Part shown: positions 3,558 to 31,779 of the stretch, piece by piece
Layout: each line of letters begins with the position of its first letter
Position numbering within the stretch: position 1 is the first letter of the stretch
From: an uncultured archaeon
GTDB taxonomy: Archaea; Iainarchaeota; Iainarchaeia; Iainarchaeales; Iainarchaeaceae
NCBI GenBank assembly: GCA_964577555.1
Contig: CAZNZM010000004.1
Coordinates: 23,200-55,199 of the forward strand
Direction of reading: 5' to 3'
DNA: 32,000 bases
Made by a program: the position numbers and the translations under genes
Notes under the pieces: model-generated
Seen by the model: the letters and a program-made list of their open reading frames with translations, nothing else
The model's database searches: none
Told to the model about the DNA's origin: nothing

Positions 3558-5333
3558 TCAAGACTCTTTTAAATTATCATAAACTGAAACCCTGATAGAA
3601 ATCTTAACAGAATTTGACACACCCTTGTCATTAGAAACAGTAAGAAAAACATTGTGGTCACCAACATCATTAACACTAAAAGTTTTGGAAAAAGTTTTGC
3701 CTTCAACAGGCTCAGAATCATCAACCCTCCAAACCCAAGAAACAATTTTATTGCCAAGAGGATCAAAAGAATTGCTCCAAAAATCGACATCAACATCATT
3801 GCTTTCAGAAGTTATTATTACCGGATTTAGCGGAGAAAAACCTATCAAAGCAACAGGCTTCAAAGACAAAGGAGAAACAGAAACAACATCATACGGCTCC
3901 TGTTTTTTATAAACCCAAATCTTAACCTCTCTTTGAGTCCCATCCTTCAACGGCAAAGTCTTATTCACAACATACCTTTCCGCATTATCCTTTTTTGTAC
4001 CAAACTCAAACTTCTTGCCAACAACAGCATCAATCGTTGAAATTATGCTCTCTTTCAACAACGAAATGTCACAACCACCTGAACTACAATCAATAATATT
4101 TCCCTTGCTTACTCCGTCACCGCCTGCAAGCAACGCCATATGCTCCTTTATCTTGTTAATAGTTTCAGGGTTTGAATGCAAACCGGAAGAAGGAAAAGAA
4201 ACACAATTAAGTTTGCCATTACAATCAACACAATCATTCGAAGTAACACAAAGATTGCCGACAGAATCGCAAATAGGCGGAGCTCCATTGCCTTTAGGAT
4301 CGGTAAAAATCGGAACAACTCTATAATCATAATTCTTAAGAACAGAAATAGCGTGATTCACAAAAACAAGAGAACGATTGCCATTACTCAAATTACAAGT
4401 TTTATAATAAACCCTAACGTTACTGCCAGTTTCTTGATAACTATAAGGAGTATCAGACTCAGAACCAGAACTCAATTCATCAGAAGCCGGAAATATAAAA
4501 GTCACGGTTGGAAACTCCGACTCCATCCTTGCCTCTGGAACTTCCTTGGCAACATAAGCCGAAGCAGTAGCCCAATCCTCGTAAAACTCTCCTTTAAGAA
4601 TGTTCATATCTGGACTGCAATTAGACATGCAACAAATACGGGCTGGAAACTTGTCAACACCAACAAAATAAGGGCTTTGTGGGTTTTTAAGCGAATCCAC
4701 AAAATACTTATTATAAATACCAACCCCCAAAGAAGGACAAACATTGCCTGTGTTTGTCACAGGTATTTTATGGTCGGCTTCAATATAAGAACAATCAATA
4801 TCAATACTGGTACAATCAAACGAATTATTAGTATTGGTTTTTAGAATGAAAACTTTCTCTTCAAAAATAAAATCCCCCTTGGTGCGAAAAAAAGACTTTA
4901 TGTCAGGGATTATAACATTCAATTTGTCAATATCGTCACGCATGCTGTCAGAACCATCGACAATGAAATAAAGCCTTATTTTCATTTTAGGCGGAATAAT
5001 CTCCATATAATAATTTTCTTTCCCATAAATAGAGTCAAATATTTTTTCAACAATCTCCTTTCTATTAACATTTTGCCCATAATAATTGAAATCATAAGAC
5101 CATGAATATATCATGTCACCCATCAACTGTGCAACACTCATCTTAATGGTTGGTTCTTCAATCTGCAAAATCTCTCCAAAATCTGCTGAAATACGATGCT
5201 GTTCAAAAGCAATCTTATTGCTTTCAAAAACCTTTACGGCTTGGTCAAGCTGATTGAATTGAATCAAAGCCCAACCAGAAAGAAGCATGACAACAATAAT
5301 TACTATTGCAATAATATCTGAAACCGCAGACAT
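3558..5333 (-). CDS. Helix-anchored vWA + PKD protein (modular pilin-like adhesin candidate)
   Basis: The N-terminus is MSAVSDIIAIVIIVVMLLSGWALIQF, a single hydrophobic helix. A MIDAS-like motif YFIVDGSDSM is the rc of 4941-4970. The C-terminal FWSNSFDPLGNKIVSWVWRVDD...GDHNVFLTVSNDKGVSNSVKISIRV fits the PKD consensus. I count 14 Cys. The ATG at 5333 abuts the upstream stop. Confidence 0.75.
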   Translation of the reverse strand: MSAVSDIIAIVIIVVMLLSGWALIQFNQLDQAVKVFESNKIAFEQHRISADFGEILQIEEPTIKMSVAQLMGDMIYSWSYDFNYYGQNVNRKEIVEKIFDSIYGKENYYMEIIPPKMKIRLYFIVDGSDSMRDDIDKLNVIIPDIKSFFRTKGDFIFEEKVFILKTNTNNSFDCTSIDIDCSYIEADHKIPVTNTGNVCPSLGVGIYNKYFVDSLKNPQSPYFVGVDKFPARICCMSNCSPDMNILKGEFYEDWATASAYVAKEVPEARMESEFPTVTFIFPASDELSSGSESDTPYSYQETGSNVRVYYKTCNLSNGNRSLVFVNHAISVLKNYDYRVVPIFTDPKGNGAPPICDSVGNLCVTSNDCVDCNGKLNCVSFPSSGLHSNPETINKIKEHMALLAGGDGVSKGNIIDCSSGGCDISLLKESIISTIDAVVGKKFEFGTKKDNAERYVVNKTLPLKDGTQREVKIWVYKKQEPYDVVSVSPLSLKPVALIGFSPLNPVIITSESNDVDVDFWSNSFDPLGNKIVSWVWRVDDSEPVEGKTFSKTFSVNDVGDHNVFLTVSNDKGVSNSVKISIRVSVYDNLKES

Positions 5334-5756
5334 TCAAACACCTTTAAAGCAAAAATAAACCCGGCCAAGGCATTTTTGCCCCTTACTATTAATAATATTC
5401 ACGACGTAAGAATATTTCCTTTCACAAGAATCATTATTGCCTATTGCCCAAGACTTTTCACTACAACCAAGAAAATTTTCCATTTTGACAACATAACCGG
5501 AAACAACAGGAGTAGTACAATTAGAATTAATGCCAAACCTATCAAACTTGTTTTCGTCAAAAGTGCCAATGCAACGAAAAACAAAATCCCTTACTTGCCC
5601 GCTTTCCTGAAGAGGCTTTATTGAAGGAGTAAGCTGATTTACCGGAACAATAGAAGAATAACCAATATAAACAAGAAACAAAACAACAAAAACAATTATG
5701 ACAACAAGCATAAAAGTTGAAATCATAGAATAAATGCCTCTACAATCCATTGACAT
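5334..5756 (-). CDS. Small pilin-like exported protein (N-terminal RG + hydrophobic helix, 6 Cys after the helix)
   Basis: The N-terminus is MSMDCRG-IYSMISTFMLVVIIVFVVLFLVYIGY. It has an ATG start and lies in the tightly packed pilin string. Confidence 0.6.
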   Translation of the reverse strand: MSMDCRGIYSMISTFMLVVIIVFVVLFLVYIGYSSIVPVNQLTPSIKPLQESGQVRDFVFRCIGTFDENKFDRFGINSNCTTPVVSGYVVKMENFLGCSEKSWAIGNNDSCERKYSYVVNIINSKGQKCLGRVYFCFKGV

Positions 5757-6168
5757 CTATTCTGCCCCCGTTTTTTCTGTTCACCAAAAGCTCGGTTACA
5801 TAAGCAAGGTTAATGCTCAAATTAGAATCTGTACTGCAAAGCAAGATTCTGCATTGCATTATCTCGCCTGAATCAAAACAAATATTATTATCCCTAACCA
5901 AAAACAAGCCTTTTTCAGTCAAAGGATTATACTTATACTTGAAATTATAAGAAGCACAAGCATCATTAATCAAAGTCTGCATTTTAGTAACATCATTCTG
6001 AACCCGCTCGGCTTCAGGCCTCAAATTCTTGAAATTACCCAAAAGCCACATAGAAGCAAGCAATATAGCAGTTATAACTGCCAACCACAAAACAACATCT
6101 GACACCAAACTAGCCTTTGAATTCAAATTCAAAACATTCAAATCAGGCTTTGCACTCAATTTTAACAC
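5740..6168 (-). CDS. Small pilin-like exported protein (4 Cys after the helix); start codon uncertain and non-ATG
   Basis: ...NSKA-SLVSDVVLWLAVITAILLASMWLL. There is no in-frame ATG before the TM helix. The track start at 6168 is GTG, and TTG at 6126 or 6132 would give a short MN(L)NSKA leader. The SLVSD motif resembles SAVSD of 3558..5333. Confidence 0.55.
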   Translation of the reverse strand: MLKLSAKPDLNVLNLNSKASLVSDVVLWLAVITAILLASMWLLGNFKNLRPEAERVQNDVTKMQTLINDACASYNFKYKYNPLTEKGLFLVRDNNICFDSGEIMQCRILLCSTDSNLSINLAYVTELLVNRKNGGRIDVNGL

Positions 6169-6601
6169 CGCCCTTAACCCTTAAAAAAGAACAAGTAAAA
6201 TCAGTTACTGAAAAAGCTTCCCTGTGAAAAGTAGTGTCAAGGTTCAAATCATAATCCTGCGGAGGACAAGAACATTTTACACAATTACTACTGCCTTGAA
6301 ACTCCATACAAATTTTACTGCCAGAAGACCTGGCAAAAACAACAGAACCGCTTGCAAGAGGAAACTTTTCAGACAACAAAGTGTCAACAGCAGAATTGCA
6401 AACAAATTCGCACTTCTGCCCCATTCTTGCAAGCGAATTTTTTATTTGCTGGAGTTTTTGTTGATCAGAACCGGTAGAAACCAAATTAGCCACTATTAAA
6501 AGCCCAAAAACAGCTGTTATTACGCCAACATAGAGCCAAACAGCCTGATCCACAAAATCTCCCCAAAATGAAAGCAAATATAGACATTCATGAACATTCA
6601 A
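6143..6601 (-). CDS. Small pilin-like exported protein (8 Cys after the helix); start codon uncertain and non-ATG
   Basis: ...DQAVWLYVGVITAVFGLLIVANLV helix. The track start at 6601 is TTG, and an in-frame GTG at 6553 would give M-DQAVW.... There is no ATG before the helix. Confidence 0.55.
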   Translation of the reverse strand: MNVHECLYLLSFWGDFVDQAVWLYVGVITAVFGLLIVANLVSTGSDQQKLQQIKNSLARMGQKCEFVCNSAVDTLLSEKFPLASGSVVFARSSGSKICMEFQGSSNCVKCSCPPQDYDLNLDTTFHREAFSVTDFTCSFLRVKGGVKIECKA

Positions 6602-7157
6602 TGTCTATTGCACCATCGCCATCGCTGTCAAATGCACTGGAAAACCAATGAAACTTTTTATCATCATCAGACAAACCAGCATAACACCCGCCAGGCTTGA
6701 TGAATTGCATCAAAAGCTCGGTGGCTTCCTCTCTTGACTTGCCTTCTCTTTTCCAATAATTGCAAAGAAGATCCTTGCACGAAGACATATTCAAATTGGA
6801 AGAGCCGCAAGAAGTCAAAAGAGAACAATAAACCTTGTCGTCACAAACACCAACCCCTGCCTTGAAGCCAGTATTATTATACGACGGAAGAGCCCCCTGC
6901 TTCAAACGAAAATCAAAAGATTTTATGCAAAACTGCGCCAAACTATCAGCATCTCCAGCAGCACACAACCTTGAACATTCAGTCTTGCCACTGGAAATCT
7001 TGTTTTCAAAAGCGGCTTTATCCTGCTCCTCCTGAATTTTAGTGCCCTGCTCCTTGAACTGCTGAGAAACAAGCTGCAAAACCAGCATTGCAACAGCCAA
7101 AAGAACAAAAAGCACAATGAATATTTGAATTGCCATTTCCATTCCTTTCTGATTCAT
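6588..7157 (-). CDS. Pilin-like exported protein with a class III-like signal (MNQKG-MEMAIQIFIVLFVLLAVAML), 10 Cys and a C-terminal DxDxDG loop
   Basis: It has an ATG start that forms an ATGA overlap with the upstream stop. The C-terminus is FDSDGDGAIDIECS. Confidence 0.65.
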   Translation of the reverse strand: MNQKGMEMAIQIFIVLFVLLAVAMLVLQLVSQQFKEQGTKIQEEQDKAAFENKISSGKTECSRLCAAGDADSLAQFCIKSFDFRLKQGALPSYNNTGFKAGVGVCDDKVYCSLLTSCGSSNLNMSSCKDLLCNYWKREGKSREEATELLMQFIKPGGCYAGLSDDDKKFHWFSSAFDSDGDGAIDIECS

Positions 7158-7564
7158 GTTTTTACCTCCACTTTACCTTTATCAACATTCCAATTTATAA
7201 AAAAAGTTTTTACGCTTGCTTTCTCAACATTGCCAAGCACGTTGACATCGCCAACCAAAGCAACCAAATTCTCAGGAACAATATTATACGGTTCGTTAGA
7301 ATGAACAGTAAAACAAATACCGCTATGCAAATTCACACCATAATTCTTATTATAACACTCTTTTATCAAAGCAACCACTTCCCTGTCCGAAACAGAAGTA
7401 ACATCAATAAGATCAGCTCCTGTTGGCGGCTTTTTATCCCCACCAAAAAAACCCAAAATAGAATTCTTTCCAGCACCTATAAGATCCTGACTGAAATTAA
7501 TTACAAGAGTGCCAACTACCAAAACTATGAACAAGGTTATTATCAATTGAACAGGCATCTCCAT
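7154..7564 (-). CDS. Small pilin-like exported protein (MEMPVQLIITLFIVLVVGTLV..., 2 Cys)
   Basis: The track start at 7576 is GTG immediately after a TGA. ATG at 7564 gives MEMPVQL..., paralogous to the MEMAIQI of the next gene. Confidence 0.6.
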   Translation of the reverse strand: MEMPVQLIITLFIVLVVGTLVINFSQDLIGAGKNSILGFFGGDKKPPTGADLIDVTSVSDREVVALIKECYNKNYGVNLHSGICFTVHSNEPYNIVPENLVALVGDVNVLGNVEKASVKTFFINWNVDKGKVEVKT

Positions 7565-7684
7565 AAAAAAAACCACTCAAAACAAGAATAAAACGATTTC
7601 AAAATATTTAAATTAAACGCTTAAAGAACTTTCCAAAAAAACAAACTTGTCCTATAAACAACAAAAAAATAATGACGATTAGGC

Positions 7685-7692
7685 AAAAAAAA
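7685..7692 (-). terminator. Oligo-T (T8 on minus strand) directly after the stop of 7693..8124
   Basis: An A8 run on the + strand abuts tca (TGA) at 7693-7695. It is followed by the only sizeable gap (116 nt) in locus A, which contains a TATA-like tttaaatatt (~7603-7617). Confidence 0.45.
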
Positions 7693-8124
7693 TCAAGTTA
7701 TTTTCAACGCATGATTCCCGTTTTCATTGCAAGAAATATTTAAAATCCTTGGCAAAACAAGCGGCGGATTGTCAATCAAAATGCGACAATCAGTACAATA
7801 ATTCATTTTTCTAAAAAAATTATTCAATTTAGCTTCGTCGAGCTCCCCAATTTTGTTGCCATCAAAAGACTCGTCAAGAAGAACAACATTGCCGCAATCC
7901 TTATAAACTTCGCCAAACTGGCACTCTTGCCAACAATAATTAAGCTTTGCCGCAAACTTTGGAAAATTAACTTTGGTTAGGCTTGGTCCGTTGGCAGGAG
8001 GAATAAACATGTTCCTTACAGTATCACCAATCTTGTTAAAATCAAATTGAAAAACAAAAGCGGTTATCAAACCAGCAACTATAATAGTGAAAAAAAGAAA
8101 ACCAACAATTTCAATTGTTTCCAT
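7693..8124 (-). CDS. Pilin-like protein beginning directly with METIEIVGFLFFTIIVAGLITAFVF (E at position 5, no leader); 6 Cys; candidate major subunit
   Basis: It has an ATG start and one N-terminal hydrophobic helix. It is the last gene before the T8 tract. Confidence 0.6.
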   Translation of the reverse strand: METIEIVGFLFFTIIVAGLITAFVFQFDFNKIGDTVRNMFIPPANGPSLTKVNFPKFAAKLNYCWQECQFGEVYKDCGNVVLLDESFDGNKIGELDEAKLNNFFRKMNYCTDCRILIDNPPLVLPRILNISCNENGNHALKIT

Positions 8125-8128
8125 AACA

Positions 8129-8206
8129 TCACTTCAACATGCTTGTAACATACAATATAATCGCTCCAAAAGCTATTACTGCAATAATAACTTCAATCAC
8201 AACCAT
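8129..8206 (-). CDS. 25-aa single-helix peptide MVVIEVIIAVIAFGAIILYVTSMLK (pilin alpha1-like, E5), below the track cutoff
   Basis: Hand translated. The ATG is at 8206, 11 nt after the platform gene stop. The TGA at 8129-8131 lies 4 nt before the next ATG. The call is speculative because the ORF is so short. Confidence 0.35.
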   Translation of the reverse strand: MVVIEVIIAVIAFGAIILYVTSMLK

Positions 8207-8217
8207 TATTGTTTGAT

Positions 8218-10086
8218 TCACCTGACAAGCACCCCTTTGAAAATAATTTCAGTGAAAGCATAATAACCGCCAAACAACAAAGCACTATAAATCAAAAAAG
8301 AAATGGCAAGATTCTCGTAAATGGTTTTTGCAATTTTATATTTGTCCGTGCCATCCCTTATATTTGAAAGAAAAAGAGAAAGTATAATAGAAGTTTCAAT
8401 AAAATACGCGCCAACAATTATCTCAAGAATAGTAGGAGGAATTATGTCTTTTATCTTCACAAGCTCAAGATTAATAGGATTACTTCCAACACTTGTCAAT
8501 ACTTCATTAATCTTCTGCTTAATGAATTCAAGAGACATGACAATAGCAGCAGCCATTACAGTAGCAGTGGTTGCCAACAAAGGAGCCAACACCGTGACGG
8601 AAATACTTACAATAGAAACCGTTTCAGCCAAAAGAGTTTGAATATAATCATCCAACTTGTAAGTTGAAAGAGTCTGCTCCCTTATCATCTTGGCTGATTT
8701 GGCCGCGCTTTTCTGGTCAATCTCGGTAAAAATAACTATCCTCTTAATAATTTGAACCATGCGCCTTGAAGGTGCAACAGAAGGCAAAAACTTTTCAACC
8801 AAATCACCAAGAGACTTTTTGGTATTATAAAGAGCCTCTTCCAATGAAGAAATTATTTTAACAGTAGGATGCTGGCCAAAACCATGGCGTTGATAATCAT
8901 TCACAACATCCTTAAGAATACTCTCCATTGACCTGTTCAAAGAAAGATAACTTGCAAACATCTGCAAAAGGTGAGGCAAATCCCTTTCAGTCTCGTTCAT
9001 TTCAAGCCAAAGCCTTTCATTCCTCTTAGCATAAAAAAAGCAAAAAAGTTCAAAACAAAGAAAAAGACCAAAAAGCCCAAGCCAAATTTTTAAAATAGAA
9101 TCAAGAGCATACTCCCTTGCAATGCCTGAAGGAGTCTCAAGATTAATAGTAGTAATATGAAAAGCAGGAATAATCAAAGCAACCAAGCCAAGACCAACAA
9201 ACACTACATACCACCATTTAGGAATCTCTTTGAAACGAGGGCTTGTTGACAAATCAATAGTATTCACTTGAATCCTATTAGTTGCAAAATTCATGGCCAT
9301 GAAAAGCAAAAGAGTTGGAAAAAAAACCACGTAAAGAAAAATAAGCAAAGGCACATTAGCCAATTGAGGCATAAAAATTGTTATCAAAGGAAGCAAAATC
9401 AAAGACATCATTGGAATCATAACGCCGACAGAAATCAGAGTCTTGGTTTGATTTGAAAGTTTTTCAGTGAAACGCTTGCCAGCATCATAATAACTCAAAA
9501 TAACAGTTTCAATAACTTCATTAATAATAGCCTCCCTTTCAGTCTGCTGGGCAATTGCAGCAGTCTGAAGAAGATTAAGACCTTTAACAAACTCCGGATT
9601 AACCTGCAACCAAATTGGAATATAATACTCAAAAGCTTCACCAATAGTTTTATACTCTTTGGCTTCTATCTTCTCACGTATAGTCCTAAACTGCTTTCCA
9701 AGAGTACCGCCAAGACTTTCGGAAACATTCACAACAGCAGCTTCAACACTCGTATTAAGAAGAATATAATTCGACATTTCAAGTAAAGCCTGAAGCATTT
9801 CCTCCCTAAAAGCAACGATCCGCTGAGTATAATTAATGCTCAAAGCCCACAAAAAAGCCCCGGAAGCAATAATCAAAGCGCCAAAACCAAAAAGATAACT
9901 AAGCAACTGAATAGGAGTTGCAACAACAGCCAAAAACATTAAACCAAAAAAATAAATTACAATGCCAGAAGCAACTTCCTGAGAATTATAAGGAAATTCT
10001 ACCAACCTAAGCTTGTCTTCCCAACTCTGAATCCTTGATACAACCGGAAAACGCCTGCCAACCTCGTATACAAAATCAAAATACAT
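8218..10086 (-). CDS. Polytopic membrane platform protein, divergent PilC/ArlJ(FlaJ)/TadC-like with two T2SS-F-like repeats
   Basis: It is 622 aa with multiple TM segments and two helical cytoplasmic segments with T2SS-F-like patterning (…LGKQFRTIREKIEAKEYKTIGEAFEY… and …LPHLLQMFASYLSLNRSMESILKDVV…). It sits directly downstream of the ATPase. Confidence 0.65.
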   Translation of the reverse strand: MYFDFVYEVGRRFPVVSRIQSWEDKLRLVEFPYNSQEVASGIVIYFFGLMFLAVVATPIQLLSYLFGFGALIIASGAFLWALSINYTQRIVAFREEMLQALLEMSNYILLNTSVEAAVVNVSESLGGTLGKQFRTIREKIEAKEYKTIGEAFEYYIPIWLQVNPEFVKGLNLLQTAAIAQQTEREAIINEVIETVILSYYDAGKRFTEKLSNQTKTLISVGVMIPMMSLILLPLITIFMPQLANVPLLIFLYVVFFPTLLLFMAMNFATNRIQVNTIDLSTSPRFKEIPKWWYVVFVGLGLVALIIPAFHITTINLETPSGIAREYALDSILKIWLGLFGLFLCFELFCFFYAKRNERLWLEMNETERDLPHLLQMFASYLSLNRSMESILKDVVNDYQRHGFGQHPTVKIISSLEEALYNTKKSLGDLVEKFLPSVAPSRRMVQIIKRIVIFTEIDQKSAAKSAKMIREQTLSTYKLDDYIQTLLAETVSIVSISVTVLAPLLATTATVMAAAIVMSLEFIKQKINEVLTSVGSNPINLELVKIKDIIPPTILEIIVGAYFIETSIILSLFLSNIRDGTDKYKIAKTIYENLAISFLIYSALLFGGYYAFTEIIFKGVLVR

Positions 10087-10102: not shown

Positions 10103-11770
10103 TCAATTTTTAGCCATCTCCATTACCCTTTCAGTAAACTGCTTTTTGAACTCATCCTCATTAGCTTTGCCCTGCAAAGGCTTAATCTTCTCAAAAAGAT
10201 CAACATACAAAGTATTAGCCTTCAAAACAAATTCAGCTTCAAGCTTTTGAGGCACTTCTGACATTATGTCAAAATACTTTTGCTTGGCCCAAGCCCTAAG
10301 CATAATATCAGCCAAAGCCGCATTATAATCCTTATAACCTTGGGTATGCTCAATTATTTCATTTATCACAACCGACTTGCCCTTCATAAAAACATCAGTA
10401 GGCACAAGAGTATCGCGTTTAGGATCATAAACCATCAAATCCTGGAAAACAGGTTCATCTTCCCAATCCTTAAGAACTTCAGTAACGGAAACAACACGCC
10501 TAACCCTATGCAAACCAGTAACAGTCTTTATCTGCTTCACCATTATAATCAAATCAGTAACCTTGAAAGAACCTTTTGGCACGCCAAGATCATTAACAAT
10601 CCTGTCATAAACACCATAAGGATTATCAGCATGAATTGTGCCGGCAACAGTCATGGACATGGCGCCAACCCTCATAGCCTCATACAAAACCTTCGCCTCT
10701 TTAGACCTGACTTCACCAAGAATAAGACAAGAATCACCAAGCCTCAAAGAAGTCCTCAAACCATGATCAAACGGAATTTCAAGACCCTCTTCCATCAAAG
10801 CAGACCTTACCTTAAGAGAAAGCAAATCATAACCAAACCTCTTATAATGATCAACAGGCAACTCCTGAGTATCTTCAATAGTAATAATCCTATACTTCTG
10901 CAAAATCTCAGTAATGGTTGCACCAAGCACAGAAGTCTTTCCAGACCCTCTTGGCCCTGCCACCAAAAAAGTCCTGCCATGAGCAATCACAAAAGACATA
11001 AAACCAGCAAACAAAGAATTCAAAGTATTATTCTTCATAAAAAGAGGCAAAGTCCAAGGACTCTCACGATGCTTCCTAATACTATACCCAATCCCATGAA
11101 CAGAAAACGGCGGAACAACAGCCTCAACCCTTGTCCTCACATTCTCAACATACAATTCGCCATCCAATTGAGGCTGAGCCTTGTTCAAAGGCCTGCCAGA
11201 CTCAATCTTCAAATAAGTAGCAAGATAATTCAAAAAATCAATAGAAGGATAAATGTTAGTCATGCACTCTTCAAACTCGTCATGAATCACAATCATAGGA
11301 GTCTGAAACTCTGGAGGATTAATATTAACCTCCTGAATATGAGGATCGCTCAACAAATAATCAAGAATGCCGTGCTTCTTAATCCAAATATTAAGCAACT
11401 GATCGGAAAAATCACGCCTCTCAAACTTTTCCCTAAGTTCCTTCAACTCCTCATACTTCTTGTCCAAACCAGGAATCTTAATAACATAAGCAATTCTAAG
11501 CTTGTCCTCAACATCAATTATGTCAACAGTAGCATCCTTTATATCATAACTCTTCAAAACCTTGCCTTCAAGAGGCTGTATCAACACATCAACAAAAAAA
11601 GGATAAACAACAAAATTCTTCTCCTGCAAATACTGCTGCTTCGTAAAAAGCTTGTTCTTATAAATCAAAATATCCAAATCAGGAGTTGGCTTGACACACG
11701 CATTGCACTGTGGAAAAGCAATATCATTCAAACCATCACAATTCTCACAATCCCTTATCTTATACTTCAT
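10103..11770 (-). CDS. Type II/IV secretion-family ATPase (ArlI/PilB/VirB11-like), divergent, with an N-terminal CxxC-x10-CxxC zinc ribbon
   Basis: Motifs: Walker A FLVAGPRGSGKTS, IITIEDTQELP, Walker B-like CLILGEVRSKEA, and His-box AGTIHADNP. The track start at 11830 is TTG; ATG at 11770 gives MKYKIRDCENCDGLNDIAFPQCNAC. Confidence 0.85.
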   Translation of the reverse strand: MKYKIRDCENCDGLNDIAFPQCNACVKPTPDLDILIYKNKLFTKQQYLQEKNFVVYPFFVDVLIQPLEGKVLKSYDIKDATVDIIDVEDKLRIAYVIKIPGLDKKYEELKELREKFERRDFSDQLLNIWIKKHGILDYLLSDPHIQEVNINPPEFQTPMIVIHDEFEECMTNIYPSIDFLNYLATYLKIESGRPLNKAQPQLDGELYVENVRTRVEAVVPPFSVHGIGYSIRKHRESPWTLPLFMKNNTLNSLFAGFMSFVIAHGRTFLVAGPRGSGKTSVLGATITEILQKYRIITIEDTQELPVDHYKRFGYDLLSLKVRSALMEEGLEIPFDHGLRTSLRLGDSCLILGEVRSKEAKVLYEAMRVGAMSMTVAGTIHADNPYGVYDRIVNDLGVPKGSFKVTDLIIMVKQIKTVTGLHRVRRVVSVTEVLKDWEDEPVFQDLMVYDPKRDTLVPTDVFMKGKSVVINEIIEHTQGYKDYNAALADIMLRAWAKQKYFDIMSEVPQKLEAEFVLKANTLYVDLFEKIKPLQGKANEDEFKKQFTERVMEMAKN

Positions 11771-12311
11771 GAGCCCCACCAACCACACTCTTATCAAACT
11801 TATAACCCGCACGCTCCATAACAGTTTCAATATTATTTATCCTCTTTCCCAACATGCCAACCATTTCAACAAGATTAAGATAAACATTCTTCACACGATA
11901 AGAAGAAACCGCACCATACATCTTCTCAATATCCGCAATCTTAACCATAATCTCCTTAGAACCGTCAGAAATGCCCGCCAAACCATCAGAATCATTCTCC
12001 ATAGAAATAAGACTACGCTCAATATCATCCAACCTTGTTTTGACAAGATCAAGCTTTGCATTAAAAATAACAAAACGCTCATTCAACCTCTCAACCTTTT
12101 CAATACCTTTTTTAGAAAGAGCCTCAGGATTAGCCTTTTCCAACATTTTAATAATCCGCTCAATTTTCATATAAATAAGATTTATTTGTGTGTCAAGAAA
12201 CCTCAACGCTTCAAGAGTCTCCAAATTAGCATCCTTCAAAACAACAAATTGATCAGTATTAACGTCATACGTCTTCCCAAACTGCTTCTGTTCAAAAACC
12301 TCTCGGGACAT
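11760..12311 (-). CDS. Helical/coiled-coil protein of unknown function, co-oriented with the locus A ATPase
   Basis: It has an ATG start and overlaps the ATPase start by 11 nt. The sequence is heptad-like and rich in E, K, L and I. I recognised no motif. Confidence 0.5.
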   Translation of the reverse strand: MSREVFEQKQFGKTYDVNTDQFVVLKDANLETLEALRFLDTQINLIYMKIERIIKMLEKANPEALSKKGIEKVERLNERFVIFNAKLDLVKTRLDDIERSLISMENDSDGLAGISDGSKEIMVKIADIEKMYGAVSSYRVKNVYLNLVEMVGMLGKRINNIETVMERAGYKFDKSVVGGAHEV

Positions 12312-12320
12312 AAAACCAAA

Positions 12321-12989
12321 TCAGCCCCCGAAAATTTTCTTGAGAGAACCAAAAAAATTATCAAAAAAACCAACTTTAACCTCTTCAGGCTTCTTAGGCT
12401 GAACCTGCTCCTTAGACTCCTCTTGGCTTGAAACAACCTTTTGATCCTGCCCAGAAGTAACCTGAATAGCCAATTGCTCCTCAATATACTTTATCCTCTT
12501 CTCAAGAGTCTCCATCACATTAATAAGAGCCATAAAAGTATCCTTGGTCTCGGAAACAGAAAGACCCTGATAAAGCTCTTCAAGAGAAACAACCTTGTTA
12601 TAAAGACTGTCAAATTGATTCTTGCTTATCTTGGTCTGCAAAATCTCCTTAAGCTCGTCATCCCTTTCCTTCAATTCATTAGTCTTCTGAAGAAAAATAT
12701 TCAACTTTGATTCGGCAGAAGCAAGATTCTGCTCCAAATTATTAAGTTTTTGAATAACATCAGTAGCCTCAGTCAAAGGAACCCCAACAGAAACAGTATT
12801 CTCAAGCTGATCAATCTTAGAACTCAACTCCCCAATACTCGCAAGCAAATAATTCTGCTTCTCTTTCAACTTTGGATCCTTGACATTCGCCGGAAAAATA
12901 GAATTCATTGTTGAAGCAACCTGATTCACAGAATCTTTAAGTTCTTGAGTTTCATTAGCCACAAAAACCACACCCAAAAAACATACCAA
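12321..12989 (-). CDS. Coiled-coil protein of unknown function (first gene of locus A); start uncertain
   Basis: The track start at 12989 is TTG. The TATA-like box at 13010-13017 would put the TSS at ~12987, so GTG at 12962 (M-ANETQELK...) or ATG at 12908 are alternatives. It has long heptad-like stretches and ends GFFDNFFGSLKKIFGG. Confidence 0.5.
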   Translation of the reverse strand: MVCFLGVVFVANETQELKDSVNQVASTMNSIFPANVKDPKLKEKQNYLLASIGELSSKIDQLENTVSVGVPLTEATDVIQKLNNLEQNLASAESKLNIFLQKTNELKERDDELKEILQTKISKNQFDSLYNKVVSLEELYQGLSVSETKDTFMALINVMETLEKRIKYIEEQLAIQVTSGQDQKVVSSQEESKEQVQPKKPEEVKVGFFDNFFGSLKKIFGG

Positions 12990-27337: not shown

Positions 27338-29077
27338 ATGCCAAACTACATGGACGAACTATTCGAAAAAATAAAAGCAAAAAACCAGCCAAAACAAGAC
27401 AAAGAACAAAAAAACAAGGAAACACAAGAAACCACGCCAAAACAACCACAAGAAGAGCAAAAAACAAAAATTACAATTGAAATACCATACACCAACACAA
27501 AAAAAGAAAACCAAGAAAAACAAAACCCAAGCATTGAAAACCAAAAAACACAACCAAGCCAAAACACTAACGAACCAAAAAACTACGAAGAAGACGAAGA
27601 AAACACAATATCAGAAACAGAAAAAAAAATGGACAAAGCAGAAAAAGAACTTATAGAATCAAACCAATACGGAAAAATATTCAAAATACAAGGACAAGAA
27701 ATGCTATACTACCATTCGCCAGTGACAAGACCAACAGGCGGAGAAAGAGCAATAATAAACACCATAAAAGAAGCCGCAACAAGAATAATCACAATAGTGC
27801 CATACAAAATAAGAGACCCAGAACAAAGACGAAACGTATACTTCCAAAAAATAATAGAAATACTCAGAGAATCCCCAGAACTAAGAATACCATCAAACAA
27901 AATAGAATTCTACGCAGAAGCAGTAGTCAGAGAAATGATAGGATACGGAATAATAGACACACTCATCAAAGACCCAATGCTGGAAGAAATAATGGTAATA
28001 GCCCCAAAAACACCAGTATTCGTATTCCACAGAAAATACGGCATGATGCTCACAAACATAGAATTCTATTCGGACAACGAAATACAAGACCTCATAAACA
28101 GAATGGCAAGAACAATAGGAAGAAGAGTAGACATTGCAAGCCCGCTACTTGACGCAAGACTCCTAGACGGAAGCCGCGTAAACGCCACAATACCGCCAGC
28201 CTCAGTAGAAGGCTCAACACTCACAATCAGAAAATTCAGACCAGACCCATACACCATAATAGACCTAATAAACTACAACACAATAAATTCAGAAGCAGCA
28301 GCTTTCCTATGGTTGGCAGTAGAAGGAATGAGAGCAAGACCAGCAAACATACTCATATCAGGAGGCACAGGCTCGGGAAAAACAACACTTCTAAACGTAC
28401 TAGCCGCATTCATACCAGACGCAGAAAGAGTAATATCAATTGAAGACACAGCAGAACTAAAACTCCCGCTAAAACACTGGGTAAGACTAGAAGCAAAACC
28501 ACCAGGATTGGAAGGCACAGGAGAAATAACAATGGACATACTAACAAAAAACGCACTCAGAATGAGGCCGGACAGAATAATAGTAGGCGAAATAAGACAC
28601 GCAGAAGCCTTTGCACTATTCACAGCAATGAACACAGGACACGCGGGAAGCATGGGAACAGTACACGCAAACTCGCCACAAGAAACAATAGTAAGAGTAA
28701 CAAACCCGCCAATGAACGTGCCAGAAGTAATGATGGCAGGACTAAACTTCATAATAATAGAACACAGACTACACGACAAAAAACTCGGCACAATAAGAAG
28801 AATAACAGAAATAGCAGAAGTAACAGGATCACTCGAAGGAAAAACCAAAACAGAACCAATATACCGAAGAGAAGCAGCAACAGATTCTTTAATAAGAACA
28901 AAAGCCCCAATACAATTCTTAAAACAAATAGAAGAAGGAACCGGCTTGACACAAGACCGAATAATGAAAGAACTCAAAGCAAGACAAGAATTCCTAGAAA
29001 ACCTTGCAGAAAAGAAAATAACAAGACTAGAAGACGTGTCAGAAGCAACTGCAAAATTCCTGTTGGAAGAGAGATAA
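27338..29077 (+). CDS. Type II/IV secretion-family ATPase (ArlI/TadA/PilB-like) with a ~97-aa low-complexity K/Q/E/N/T N-terminal extension
   Basis: Motifs: Walker A ILISGGTGSGKTTLLN, VISIEDTAELKLP, Walker B RIIVGEIRHAEA, and His-box GTVHANSP. An alternative start is ATG at 27629 (MDKAEKEL...). Confidence 0.9.
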   Translation: MPNYMDELFEKIKAKNQPKQDKEQKNKETQETTPKQPQEEQKTKITIEIPYTNTKKENQEKQNPSIENQKTQPSQNTNEPKNYEEDEENTISETEKKMDKAEKELIESNQYGKIFKIQGQEMLYYHSPVTRPTGGERAIINTIKEAATRIITIVPYKIRDPEQRRNVYFQKIIEILRESPELRIPSNKIEFYAEAVVREMIGYGIIDTLIKDPMLEEIMVIAPKTPVFVFHRKYGMMLTNIEFYSDNEIQDLINRMARTIGRRVDIASPLLDARLLDGSRVNATIPPASVEGSTLTIRKFRPDPYTIIDLINYNTINSEAAAFLWLAVEGMRARPANILISGGTGSGKTTLLNVLAAFIPDAERVISIEDTAELKLPLKHWVRLEAKPPGLEGTGEITMDILTKNALRMRPDRIIVGEIRHAEAFALFTAMNTGHAGSMGTVHANSPQETIVRVTNPPMNVPEVMMAGLNFIIIEHRLHDKKLGTIRRITEIAEVTGSLEGKTKTEPIYRREAATDSLIRTKAPIQFLKQIEEGTGLTQDRIMKELKARQEFLENLAEKKITRLEDVSEATAKFLLEER

Positions 29078-29079
29078 AA

Positions 29080-30219
29080 ATGACAGACCTAAACAACCTC
29101 AGAGAAAAAATAGAAGAAAAAAAAGAAAAAAAAACAGAACAAGAACAACCAAAAACCGAAGACTACGTTGACACAAACCAAGTGGAAAAAATAGTTGACA
29201 GAATGAAAAAAAAATACAAACAAGAAGGCCTAGAATTTGAAAAAGCAAAAGGAGAATTAGGAGAACTAAGAGACATAATAGCAGAAGGAGAACAAGAAAA
29301 ACTAAGCGTACAAAGAGTAGAAGACCTCCAAGAATTCCAAAACCCAACAATACAATCCCTAGGAAAATTCTACCTCACATTCAAAACACTACTAAACCCA
29401 ATATCAAACTTCTTCTACAAAATGCCAATAGCAAGCGACGTAAGATACTACTTATATTCAGCAAACATGAAAATGTCACTAATACAATGGCTCGCACTAT
29501 CAGTATCAGCCGCCACAATAGCAGGATTCTTTACACTAACAATGGCAACAGCACTAGTACTCACAATAGAAGCACCATGGTTCCTACCACTAATATTAAC
29601 ACCGATAGTAGCAGCATTCACGCTAATAGTAGCACTATTAATACCAAAAAGCAACGCACAAAGAAGAGGCATAGAAATAAGCAGAGAACTGCCATTCGTA
29701 TTAAGACACATGGCAACAGAACTAAAAGCAGGCATAGGACTATACAAATCACTCCAAACAATAGCAGCCTCAGACTACGGAGTACTAAGCGAAGAATTCG
29801 GAAGAACAATAACAGAAATAGAAGAAGGAACAGACGTAAAAGACGCATTAAGACACTTTGCACTCAGAACACAATCAAAAGCACTAAAAAACTCACTATT
29901 CCACGTCATAAGAGCAATGAAAACAGGAGGCAGCCTCTCAGAAATAATGAACATAATAGCAGAAGACGTAAGCTTCGAAATGCAAGTAAAAATAAAAGAC
30001 TTCTCAGAAAAACTAAACTTCTTCGGAGTAATATTCATTTTCGGAGCAATAGTAGTACCAGTATTCATAGCAATAATAGGCGCAATAACAAACGCACCAG
30101 TAAGCCCCGGCGGAATAAACATACCGCCAATAATGCTAATGGTATTTTACATAATAATAATGCCATTCCTATTAGGATTTTTGGCAATTTTCCTAAAAAT
30201 AACACAACCACAGACGTGA
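29080..30219 (+). CDS. T2SS-F-domain membrane protein (TadB-like half of a split platform)
   Basis: RELPFVLRHMATELKAGIGLYKSLQTIAASDYGVLSEEFGRTITEIEEGTDVKDAL plus flanking TM segments. It starts 3 nt after the ATPase stop. Confidence 0.8.
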   Translation: MTDLNNLREKIEEKKEKKTEQEQPKTEDYVDTNQVEKIVDRMKKKYKQEGLEFEKAKGELGELRDIIAEGEQEKLSVQRVEDLQEFQNPTIQSLGKFYLTFKTLLNPISNFFYKMPIASDVRYYLYSANMKMSLIQWLALSVSAATIAGFFTLTMATALVLTIEAPWFLPLILTPIVAAFTLIVALLIPKSNAQRRGIEISRELPFVLRHMATELKAGIGLYKSLQTIAASDYGVLSEEFGRTITEIEEGTDVKDALRHFALRTQSKALKNSLFHVIRAMKTGGSLSEIMNIIAEDVSFEMQVKIKDFSEKLNFFGVIFIFGAIVVPVFIAIIGAITNAPVSPGGINIPPIMLMVFYIIIMPFLLGFLAIFLKITQPQT

Positions 30220-30223
30220 AAAC

Positions 30224-31177
30224 ATGGCACTCCAACTAATAGATACAATACCAATAATAAAAGAAATGAGCATAATGAAAAAATACGCAAGATACTTGCA
30301 CACAGCAGACTTCAGAATAGACCCATTACTATGGATAATTTACTGCTTAGTAGCCGCAACAATAATATCAACAATAATGTTCTTCATAGCAACATACTTC
30401 AACCTAGAACAATCAATAGCAATAGGAATACTCGGCTTCATAGTAATACTTGATTTAGGATTAGGATACCCATACCTAAAAGCAGAACAAAAAATAGAAG
30501 AAATAGAAGAAATACTCCCAGACGCGCTAAGACAAATGGCTGACACACTAAAATCAGGCGGCACATACGAACTCGCAATAAAAGAAGTAGCAACATCAGA
30601 TTATGGCCCATTAAAAGTAGAAATGAACGAAGTACTAAGAAAACTCGAAGAAGGAGAAAACTTTGAAAACTCATTCAAAACACTTGCAAAAAACATTGAC
30701 TCAAGACTAGTAAAAAGAACAGTCACAATAATAACAAACTCAATACAAGCAGGAGCAGGACTATCAAACGTATTAGAACAAATAGCAGAAGACGTAAGAG
30801 CATTCTACAGAATAGCAAAAGAAAGAAAAGCATCAACAGCAATGCAAGTAATATTCATGTTCGTGGCAGGAGCACTAATAGCACCAATGATATTCGGATT
30901 CGTATCAACAATATCAAAAATCCTAATAACATCCTCAGGAATGGCGGCAACAGAAGAAGCAAAAGCAGCAGCAACAGAAGCATCAGTAATAATAAACATG
31001 ACAATACAATTATACATATTCATAGAAACATTCTTTTCAGCACTAATGATATCAATAATGCGCGAAGGAAAGATAAGCAAAACAATTATATATTTCCCAA
31101 TACTTGTTTTAATAGCTTATATCGCCTATTTGGCGGCATCAATATTTTTCAGTGGAATATTAGGGGTAAAAACATGA
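30224..31177 (+). CDS. T2SS-F-domain membrane protein (TadC-like half of a split platform)
   Basis: LPDALRQMADTLKSGGTYELAIKEVATSDYGPLKVEMNEVLRKLEEGENFENSF plus TM segments. Confidence 0.8.
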   Translation: MALQLIDTIPIIKEMSIMKKYARYLHTADFRIDPLLWIIYCLVAATIISTIMFFIATYFNLEQSIAIGILGFIVILDLGLGYPYLKAEQKIEEIEEILPDALRQMADTLKSGGTYELAIKEVATSDYGPLKVEMNEVLRKLEEGENFENSFKTLAKNIDSRLVKRTVTIITNSIQAGAGLSNVLEQIAEDVRAFYRIAKERKASTAMQVIFMFVAGALIAPMIFGFVSTISKILITSSGMAATEEAKAAATEASVIINMTIQLYIFIETFFSALMISIMREGKISKTIIYFPILVLIAYIAYLAASIFFSGILGVKT

Positions 31178-31320
31178 TAAAAGAAGAAAAAGCACAAGGT
31201 TCAACAGAAACACTATTAGCATTAGGATTGGCAGTAGTAGCAGCTGTAACAGTGGGATTTTTTATCAAAAACTACGTAACCGAAAAAATAGCCCCGGAAG
31301 TGGAGGAAAAGATTGATTAA
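31174..31320 (+). CDS. 48-aa mini-pilin with a class III signal peptide (MIKEEKA-QGSTETLLALGLAVVAAVTVGFF...), below the track cutoff
   Basis: Hand translated. It forms an ATGA overlap with the preceding stop. It has Q at +1 and E at +5 relative to the predicted KA|Q cleavage site. Confidence 0.7.
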   Translation: MIKEEKAQGSTETLLALGLAVVAAVTVGFFIKNYVTEKIAPEVEEKID

Positions 31321-31392
31321 GGAGTTTGACTAACTTATACGTAACAAAAATTATTCATTTTAAAAAAGAAAAAAATGGAGGATGATAAAAAA

Positions 31393-31461
31393 ATGAACAC
31401 AAAAGGACAAGGAGCACTAGAATACCTACTACTAATCGGAGGAGCAGTAGTAGTAGCAGCA
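31393..31461 (+). repeat. 69-nt 5' pilin cassette repeated at 31932-32000 with one mismatch (g/c at cassette position 14)
   Basis: I compared the two stretches directly, base by base. Confidence 0.9.
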
Positions 31462-31779
31462 ATAGTAGTAATAATACTCCTACAACTAGGAGGCACAAGC
31501 GGAACCGCAACAACCGCAACAACAATGTCATCAACAGCAACACAACTAGCAACATTAGCAAATTCAACACCAAACTGCGGTGACTTAGTTGGAGATTCTG
31601 GAATAAGCTCAGCATACATGTGGAACAGCAAAGACAAAACATGCTGGATATCAAGCGGAACACACCCAAACTGCACAGCAACAAAAACAAGTGCAACGAC
31701 AGAAACCACATGTTGCTCAGCTGGAGCTGGATGTAGTGCAACAGCTAATAGTGGTGCCCAAAGATATACATTAATTTAA
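31393..31779 (+). CDS. Pilin with a class III signal peptide (MNTKG-QGALEYLLLIGGAVVVAAIVVIILL), T/S-rich, 6 Cys
   Basis: It has Q(+1)/E(+5). The track start at 31375 is less likely, for three reasons. The paralog at 31932 starts with the same MNTK. A TATA-like cattttaaaaaag lies ~31 nt upstream of 31393. A ggagg lies 11 nt upstream. Confidence 0.8.
   Translation: MNTKGQGALEYLLLIGGAVVVAAIVVIILLQLGGTSGTATTATTMSSTATQLATLANSTPNCGDLVGDSGISSAYMWNSKDKTCWISSGTHPNCTATKTSATTETTCCSAGAGCSATANSGAQRYTLI

Follow-up and report, generated by a model that had tools for sequence, protein, structure and literature searches.

The window analyzed here, a 32,000-nt stretch (C4:23200-55199), belongs to the 979-kb genome of an uncultured archaeon of the DPANN phylum Iainarchaeota ("Diapherotrites"), which has 34% G+C and is 95.5% complete. 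On its minus strand, between 3558 and 12989, it carries a locus of 12 genes (Table 1) that, by its gene content, is a type IV filament (pilus-like) system. Eight pilin-like proteins, each opening with an N-terminal hydrophobic helix, are encoded downstream of an assembly ATPase and a membrane platform protein, and the way in which their N-termini are made is the subject of this work. A reading of the DNA without database searches (the sequence-only reading) had described a battery of six, possibly seven, small pilin-like genes at this place. Indeed, seven head-to-tail minus-strand open reading frames (ORFs) lie within 5334-8221, each with one N-terminal hydrophobic helix, and a 591-amino-acid (aa) protein of the same type, p591, continues the series.

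Table 1. Features of the filament locus and of related genes in the same genome. Positions are those of the window unless a contig is named; a slash marks the predicted prepilin cleavage site.
Feature	Position	Strand	Description
up222	12321-12989	-	First gene of the locus; coiled-coil-like, soluble; tblastn orthologues at the same position in 10 related loci
up183	11760-12311	-	Conserved soluble protein upstream of the ATPase; orthologues at the same position in 6 related loci
ATPase	10103-11770	-	Type IV filament assembly ATPase, FlaI/TadA-like; Pfam T2SSE 5.6e-19
Platform	8218-10086	-	622-aa polytopic protein, divergent TadC/ArlJ type; adjoins the ATPase; orthologues 46-73% identical
p30	8129-8221	-	30-aa single-helix protein MNQTIMVVIEVIIAVIAFGAIILYVTSMLK; GTG start overlaps the platform stop (GTGA)
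pMETIE	7693-8124	-	Leaderless, 143 aa, M-E-T-I-E start, 6 invariant Cys; in-frame stop three codons upstream
Gap	7577-7692	-	116 nt between modules; T8 and T7 runs straight after the pMETIE stop; TTTAAATA 40 nt before the pMEMPVQ ATG
pMEMPVQ	7154-7564	-	Leaderless, 136 aa, M-E-M-P start, 2 conserved Cys
pMNQKG	6588-7157	-	Canonical prepilin MNQKG/MEMAIQIFIVLFVLLAVAMLVLQLV, 189 aa, 10 Cys
pMDQAV	6143-6553	-	Leaderless, 136 aa, GTG start, M-D-Q-A-V-W, 8 Cys; GGAG 5 nt upstream
pNSKA	5740-6126	-	Short-leader prepilin, TTG start, MNSKA/SLVSDVVLW, 4 Cys
pCRG	5334-5756	-	Canonical prepilin MSMDCRG/IYSMISTF, 6 Cys in the mature part
p591	3558-5333	-	Leaderless, MSAVSDIIAIV..., 14 Cys, [VI]DGSxS motif, C-terminal PKD domain; TGA directly before the ATG
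A24 peptidase 1	C4:56485-57651		388 aa, Peptidase_A24 and Arc_PepC; 1.3 kb past the window end
A24 peptidase 2	C4:107986-108789		267 aa
Epd/Tad-like filament locus	27338-31779	+	Second locus: ATPase, two T2SSF platform genes, PF04021 pilin; runs on beyond the window

Type IV pilins are defined as precursors with a leader of 6-26 residues, which a dedicated peptidase removes before assembly (PMC4471445). Such leaders are hydrophilic and end in Gly, or in archaea in Gly, Ala or Ser, as a rule preceded by Lys or Arg. A class III leader is present, at the level of the motif, in the MNQKG, MNSKA and CRG proteins of the locus, and it is absent from METIE, from the MEMP protein of the window, from MDQAV, from p591 and from p30. 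We assessed these N-termini by reading the frame of each orthologue back to the nearest in-frame stop, using the orthologous loci in 15 other genomes (designated here by L numbers). A word-based search with a single protein sequence found two close relatives only, and the wider families were reached by profile searches.

Four families start without a leader: METIE, MEMPVQ, MDQAVW and the 591-aa MSAVSD proteins. In-frame stops stand 0-4 codons upstream of these starts in the window and in many orthologues, so longer leaders are ruled out. The METIE protein, which had been read as starting METIEIV without a leader, keeps this start throughout: 16/16 orthologues begin M-[QE]-x-[IVL]-E. The ATG of L051 and L054 is immediately preceded by a stop, which in the window and several other copies stands 3-4 codons further up. 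Searching 1.84 billion representatives with a HMMER profile extended the family to 167 clusters at E ≤ 0.001, and in nearly all of them profile position 1 falls on residue 1 of the protein. Among the best 153 of the 167, which we tallied, 126 representatives start M-x-x-x-E, with Glu5 in 126/126 of these, and K or R occurs within the first five residues of 3 of the 126. Eight further representatives among the best 153 have an acidic residue at position 6, and those that remain mostly resemble truncated or over-extended gene calls. The first eight residues of the family are conserved (M1 and E5 in all 126). Invariant Glu5 is found in METIE alone among the families of the locus, and Asp or Glu occurs at positions 4-6 in p591 and pNSKA. 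We also considered cleavage of METIE after Gly8 (METIEIVG/F) and rejected it, Gly8 being present in only 7/126 members. A regular-expression scan of the genome for M-x-x-x-[ED] followed by a hydrophobic stretch was discarded as an enrichment test, its hits being mostly spurious T-rich antisense ORFs.

The other three families behave in the same way. For MEMPVQ, whose lack of a leader had also been proposed, a stop lies one codon upstream in L035 and L057, and the upstream frame in the window could add at most MVFF (TGA directly before GTG 7576). The MDQAV gene had not been typed by the sequence-only reading, and the TTG start at 6601 assigned to it finds no support in orthologues. ORF 6143-6601 most likely begins at GTG 6553, since 9/9 orthologues read M-E-[QN]-x-[VI]-W without a leader, with a stop directly before the start codon in L054 and L055. 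Orthologues of p591 begin M-[SA]-x-x-[SE]-[DNQ]. Across 20-40% identity, all of these families retain intact frames and invariant cysteines.

The leader-bearing N-termini proposed earlier, MNQKG/MEMAIQ, MNSKA/SLVSD and MSMDCRG/IYSM, are likewise kept in orthologues. In the MNQKG family the leader is M-x-x-K-G in 9/9 members (the window and 8 orthologues), followed by M-[ESD]-M-A-I-Q, and the first ~30 mature residues are almost invariant. The gene has the strongest Shine-Dalgarno match of the locus (GGAGGT, spacer 6), and its product is a likely candidate for the major pilin. The TTG start of pNSKA recurs in 7/9 family members, giving M-x-x-x-[GA] and a five-residue leader of the form M-N-A-x-G. 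A stop precedes this TTG directly in L055 and by one codon in L034, and the GTG at 6168 that would open the longest ORF has no orthologue support. At pCRG, 7/7 orthologues carry [KRS]-G/[IV]-[YFH]-[SE].

Both forms of N-terminus occur within the MEMP family. Our tally combines 18 members from the protein search with the locus copies: 12 members read M-x-N-E-K-G/M-E-[LM]-P-I-A-V... or close variants, including the leaders MNSKG/, MNLNRKG/ and MGLNGKG/, and 10 begin M-E-[ML]-P. The leaderless starts coincide with the predicted cleavage site of the leader-bearing members, and the two forms differ only by the leader. In a maximum-likelihood tree computed with leaders removed, one change of state suffices (branch support 75/82; 76% of bootstrap trees); the tree is unrooted and does not fix the direction of this change.

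The same register appears when leaderless proteins are compared with other prepilins of the genome. MEMP residues 1-25 align with residues 1-25 of mature MNQKG (hhalign probability 96%, E 2e-9). Among the globular domains of the seven families, the best hhalign probability is 10%, which confines the relatedness to the N-terminal helices. The start of p591, (M)SAVSDII, parallels KA/SLVSDVV of the neighboring prepilin pNSKA. Additionally, at least 10 canonical class III proteins in the genome read [KR]-[GA]/Q-x-x-x-[ED]. Because these proteins, once mature, begin Q-x-x-x-[ED], the M-[EQ]-[TA]-[IV]-E start of METIE copies the local mature N-terminus, with Met replacing Gln. Methionine aminopeptidase usually keeps Met before Glu or Gln and removes it before Ser or Ala. 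By these rules, each leaderless protein is therefore predicted to end up with the N-terminus of its processed paralogue.

Taken together, the orthologue comparison shows the leaderless starts to be real, old and conserved, and to lie at the point where prepilins are predicted to be cut. What corresponds to the mature +1 position of the leader-bearing relatives is the initiator Met or, after predicted Met removal, the residue next to it. The idea of leaderless synthesis, which would yield some pilin-like subunits in an apparently processed form, is thus strongly supported by conserved starts, by upstream stops and by a MEMP family in which leader-bearing and leaderless orthologues coexist. Longer leaders in orthologues, which would have pointed to mis-called starts, are absent from the METIE, MDQAV and 591-aa families and turned up in one clade of MEMP only.

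The statement that no peptidase gene is present is correct for the window but fails for the genome, which holds two Peptidase_A24 genes, both of which score above the Pfam cut-off and keep G-G-D-V-K as well as the first conserved Asp. There are 2-3 A24 genes in each of five further genomes that bear the locus, always outside it. Peptidase independence does not extend to the whole system: [KR]-[GA] leaders persist in three families, the likely major pilin among them. The MNQKG, MNSKA and CRG proteins, being ordinary prepilins, must be substrates of one or other of the two A24 peptidases, neither of which is encoded in the locus.

The smallest protein of the series, p30, requires a corrected start. 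A 25-aa ORF starting MVVIEV at ATG 8206 had been listed here as a second protein with Glu at position 5. Orthologues begin five codons earlier and have E, T or W at the position of that ATG, so the Glu5 assignment stands for METIE and not for the tiny ORF, where Glu is residue 10. We found p30 in 9 other loci (L034-L038, L051, L053, L054 and L058), between the platform gene and METIE, with sequences such as MSKTIETIIELVI, MNTTVETIIELVI and MNRALWLAVEVMI. These orthologues have 30-32 aa (93 aa and 4 Cys in L054) and follow M-[NS]-x-[TSA]-x-x-x-x-[IV]-E-x-x-I-[AG].... The window copy reads MNQTIMVVIEV, and Glu stands at position 10 in 9/10 copies. No [KR]-[GA] motif occurs in the five additional residues, the last of which is I, V, L, T or S, and p30 resembles a pilin helix lengthened by five residues that could not be cleaved off. 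The GTGA overlap predicts that p30 is translationally coupled to the platform gene, and one may speculate that it points to the platform as a partner. In L051 (G115:C48, about 8148-8654), METIE begins in frame immediately after the p30 stop (...SALGGN, stop, MQAIEMM). A p30-METIE fusion made by read-through or frameshifting was considered and rejected, because the two are in frame with a single stop in L051 only and the window copies are out of frame.

The locus is patchily distributed and keeps its composition where it occurs. A METIE profile search located it in 16/215 genomes of the phylum and 11/79 genera, and tblastn on orthologous regions showed that the gene set and order recur in 15 other genomes of the phylum. 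Of the first 60 relatives searched, 4 have a full-length platform orthologue (46-73% identity) and two others a fragment; full-length orthologues are restricted to locus-bearing genomes. The locus is often laid out as two modules, ATPase-platform-p30-METIE and MEMP-MNQKG-MDQAV-NSKA-CRG-p591, which lie apart or inverted in the relatives L035, L054 and L056-L058. In the window, the gap between the modules is probably a terminator followed by an internal promoter that splits the locus into two units. The small proteins of the locus have no significant family in Pfam, NCBIfam or PHROGs.

We modeled two of the leaderless proteins with AlphaFold2. The METIE model (11 sequences, predicted local distance difference test (pLDDT) 74) has a helix at 3-26, a low-confidence segment at 36-48 and then a compact alpha/beta domain. 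In the MEMP model (21 sequences, pLDDT 81, above 90 over ~51-136), the helix spans 5-33 and a low-confidence segment at 35-47 again leads into a compact alpha/beta domain. Across the 126 METIE-family members, the first charged residue after E5 falls at a mean position of 26, leaving a hydrophobic stretch of ~20 residues. Models and charge positions both agree with the ~21-residue hydrophobic extended helix of type IV pilins. An even number of cysteines is found in 112/116 of the short METIE-family members, and almost all orthologues in each of the families share this feature. Because of these even counts, the invariant cysteines (6 in METIE, 2 in MEMP) and the adhesive modules of long METIE-family members, the C-terminal parts are probably extracellular.

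The long METIE-family members just mentioned have 346-1017 aa and carry VWA, CBM96/disaggregatase, Lcl_C or GLUG modules behind a leaderless M-E-x-V-E start. They comprise L060:1891-4941 (G151:C78), P0128, P0134, P0109, P0127 and P0020. Within the locus itself, p591 has a Pfam PKD_4 match (1.6e-6) and is an adhesin candidate. Its [VI]DGSxS motif, comparable to the DxSxS MIDAS motif of von Willebrand A (vWA) domains, was seen in the window protein and in the two orthologues inspected, and the only related match in the PDB is integrin beta-8 (E 0.6). Pfam VWA was not detected in p591 or in 7 orthologues. A vWA domain in p591 was accordingly dropped as a candidate, Pfam being silent in every orthologue, and it stays a hint at the level of the motif.

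We favor, with a probability of roughly 0.55, the interpretation that the leaderless proteins are minor pilins born mature, which make up a priming or tip complex independent of the peptidase. They would insert N-in/C-out like processed pilins and would be competent for assembly without the peptidase. The complex that they form would carry the PKD adhesin-like p591, and the processed major pilin, probably MNQKG, would polymerize onto it. Glu5 of METIE would take the charge-pairing role known from bacterial pilins, in which this residue is needed for homopolymerization (PMC4471445). Several features expected of pilins are in place: the genes are linked to a filament ATPase and platform, A24 peptidases are encoded in the genome, and Glu5 is present in METIE (126/126 of the M-x-x-x-E starters). 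A more far-reaching version, in which leaderless pilins are a regular, overlooked class of filament subunits in DPANN and some other archaea and METIE, in view of its invariant Glu5 and its constant linkage to the motor, is a true subunit polymerized without a peptidase step, seems to us doubtful. Two archaeal pilin censuses are based on FlaFind or an SPIII-motif script; because these use the class III cleavage motif, leaderless subunits would be missed by them.

A number of observations weigh against the minor-pilin interpretation. The filament, the N-termini and the incorporation of these proteins are predictions from gene sequences. In the MEMP, MNQKG and MDQAV families, Glu, Asp or Ser stands at position 2 and Glu5 is lacking, as it often is in archaeal pilins. 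In both models, the low-confidence linker (~35-48) separates the helix from the domain. Foldseek searches of the METIE and MEMP models against the PDB gave best E values of 0.6 and 1.2, with no match to a pilin or other fold, and the METIE profile has no match among PDB sequences at E ≤ 10. The charges flanking the helix are net negative on both sides and give no positive-inside signal of topology. The METIE gene always travels with the ATPase-platform-p30 module, an association that fits a part of the machine too. Finally, ArlF and ArlG, which are archaellin paralogues with an N-terminal helix, work alongside the filament and show that such proteins are not always its subunits (PMC8667602).

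The main alternative, which we regard as possible but somewhat unlikely, is that the leaderless proteins and p30 are membrane-retained parts of the machine, such as anchors, stators or alignment proteins, with only the three leader-bearing proteins entering the filament. Such parts could be pilin-derived, as ArlF and ArlG are from archaellins, or could resemble bacterial PilN, PilO, GspL or GspM, in which a ferredoxin-like periplasmic domain follows a transmembrane helix and coiled coil. ArlF is secreted at full length and ArlG is cut by an unidentified protease, with no class III processing described for either (PMC8667602), and an anchoring role would suit the overlap of p30 with the platform stop and the constant position of METIE after the platform and p30. 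It would also suit models made of a helix, a flexible linker and an alpha/beta domain without a pilin match. The MEMP model has the order beta-alpha-beta-alpha-beta-beta-beta, which loosely resembles the alpha-beta-beta repeats of PilO and GspM. However, Foldseek against the PDB returned no PilN, PilO, GspL, GspM or ArlF/G for either model at E ≤ 10, and Pfam found no archaellin domain. The invariant Glu5 in the membrane helix of 126 representatives is a signature of pilin assembly that a plain anchor does not need (PMC4471445). Moreover, the MEMP family also exists with a class III leader, and long METIE-family members bear adhesive modules in the manner of modular pilins.

Two other accounts of the missing leaders appear much weaker. 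The helices might be Sec-type signal sequences without a basic n-region, removed by type I signal peptidase to release soluble, disulfide-bonded secreted factors. Cysteine-rich and probably extracellular domains with even Cys counts, preceded in both models by a low-confidence linker, are what such factors would have. We nevertheless think this very unlikely, as the first eight residues are highly conserved, unlike those of disposable signal peptides, and the hydrophobic stretch runs for ~20 residues before the first charge. The h-region of a typical signal peptide is shorter than that. Furthermore, what the leader-bearing orthologues have is a class III motif on the N-terminal side of the helix and not a motif behind it. 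It is scarcely credible, in turn, that the leaders are absent through an artefact of mis-called starts or through leader loss in decaying genes. Two starts assigned earlier were indeed wrong (the 25-aa ORF and ORF 6143-6601), and GTG 7576 could add MVFF to the MEMP protein. Against this stand the stops found directly before or within four codons of the starts, the intact frames and invariant cysteines noted above, and a start shared across METIE clusters, nearly all 167 of which align from residue 1.

Set beside known systems, the locus is close to those of archaeal type IV pilins and other class III proteins, the substrates of PibD, FlaK and EppA that include the Epd, Aap and Ups pili (PMC4471445, PMC4858521, PMC13705601). 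It shares with them the ATPase and platform context, the ~25-residue N-terminal helix, Glu5 (in METIE), leaders in three of eight proteins and genomic A24 peptidases. It differs in that four families start at +1, the globular domains match no solved pilin and the platform has no T2SSF match in Pfam. The resemblance to ArlF and ArlG (PMC8667602) lies in their being paralogues of filament subunits with an N-terminal helix; theirs is an archaellin beta-sandwich with shorter helices, whereas the proteins described here have a predicted alpha/beta domain, Glu5 in METIE and leader-bearing orthologues in MEMP. The small proteins have no Arch_flagellin or other Pfam match at E ≤ 1, and we recognized no archaellum-specific genes in the locus. 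Bacterial minor-pilin complexes (GspH-K; FimU-PilVWX with PilY1; TadE/F/G) and PilB of S. sanguinis (PMC8179133) offer a parallel in layout, with pilin-like genes of low similarity beside one conserved major pilin. As in those adhesin sets, the last member is a large protein with a pilin-type anchor and modules of the adhesion type, here PKD; VWA or CBM modules occur in long METIE members. We detected no similarity in sequence or fold between the bacterial proteins and those of the locus. No bacterial minor pilin is known to be made without a leader or to dispense with PilD. The long METIE-family members recall modular pilins (PMC8179133), of which they would be leaderless counterparts. A full-text literature search for "leaderless pilin" as a term found no paper.

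Leader removal is regarded as a universal step on which every pilin-finding program builds, and conserved leaderless starts run against this textbook rule. The locus amounts to a natural test, as one organism, and even one family (MEMP), contains versions with and without a leader, the leader being their only difference. Assembly of the leaderless forms would mean that the leader is not mechanistically needed for membrane insertion or polymerization and that priming complexes can bypass the peptidase checkpoint. Motif-based surveys would then miss some of the pilins of DPANN archaea, whose surface filaments may serve in contact with hosts. Retention in the membrane would instead make the leaderless forms the second independent example, next to ArlF/ArlG, of pilin paralogues taken over as parts of a machine.

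The remaining genes of the locus lie upstream of the pilin series. The ATPase is 59-72% identical across related loci and matches the NCBIfam FlaI (8.9e-35) and TadA (1.4e-34) families, both far below their equivalog cut-offs. Its start is probably the ATG at 11770 (MKYKIRDCENC...). From this ATG the protein begins MKYKIRDCENCDGLNDIAFPQCNAC, a zinc-ribbon-like N-terminus of the form CxxC-x10-CxxC. The longest ATPase ORF, started by a TTG (to 11830), would overlap the upstream gene. The sole Pfam match of the platform is weak (SpoIIIAB, GspF-like, 8e-5). At the head of the locus, up222 has weak coiled-coil-type Pfam matches only, none significant, and an uncertain start position, and up183 has no Pfam match.

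Two more filament motor sets are encoded in the genome. The Epd/Tad-like locus on the plus strand of the window is recognized by Pfam T2SSE (2.8e-44), T2SSF (5e-20 and 5e-19) and Class_IIIsignal (4e-7). It extends to C4:54574-58585, a region with several PF04021-type pilins (KG/Q-x-x-x-E-Y-L) and A24 peptidase 1, and part of this stretch is N. A third motor set, at C5:64740-69885, encodes a 796-aa ATPase, a 793-aa platform and a 143-aa protein starting MKTSNQSGQAFEPFNLL. Unlike the patchy locus studied here, this C5 type of platform is found in almost all of the 60 relatives searched.

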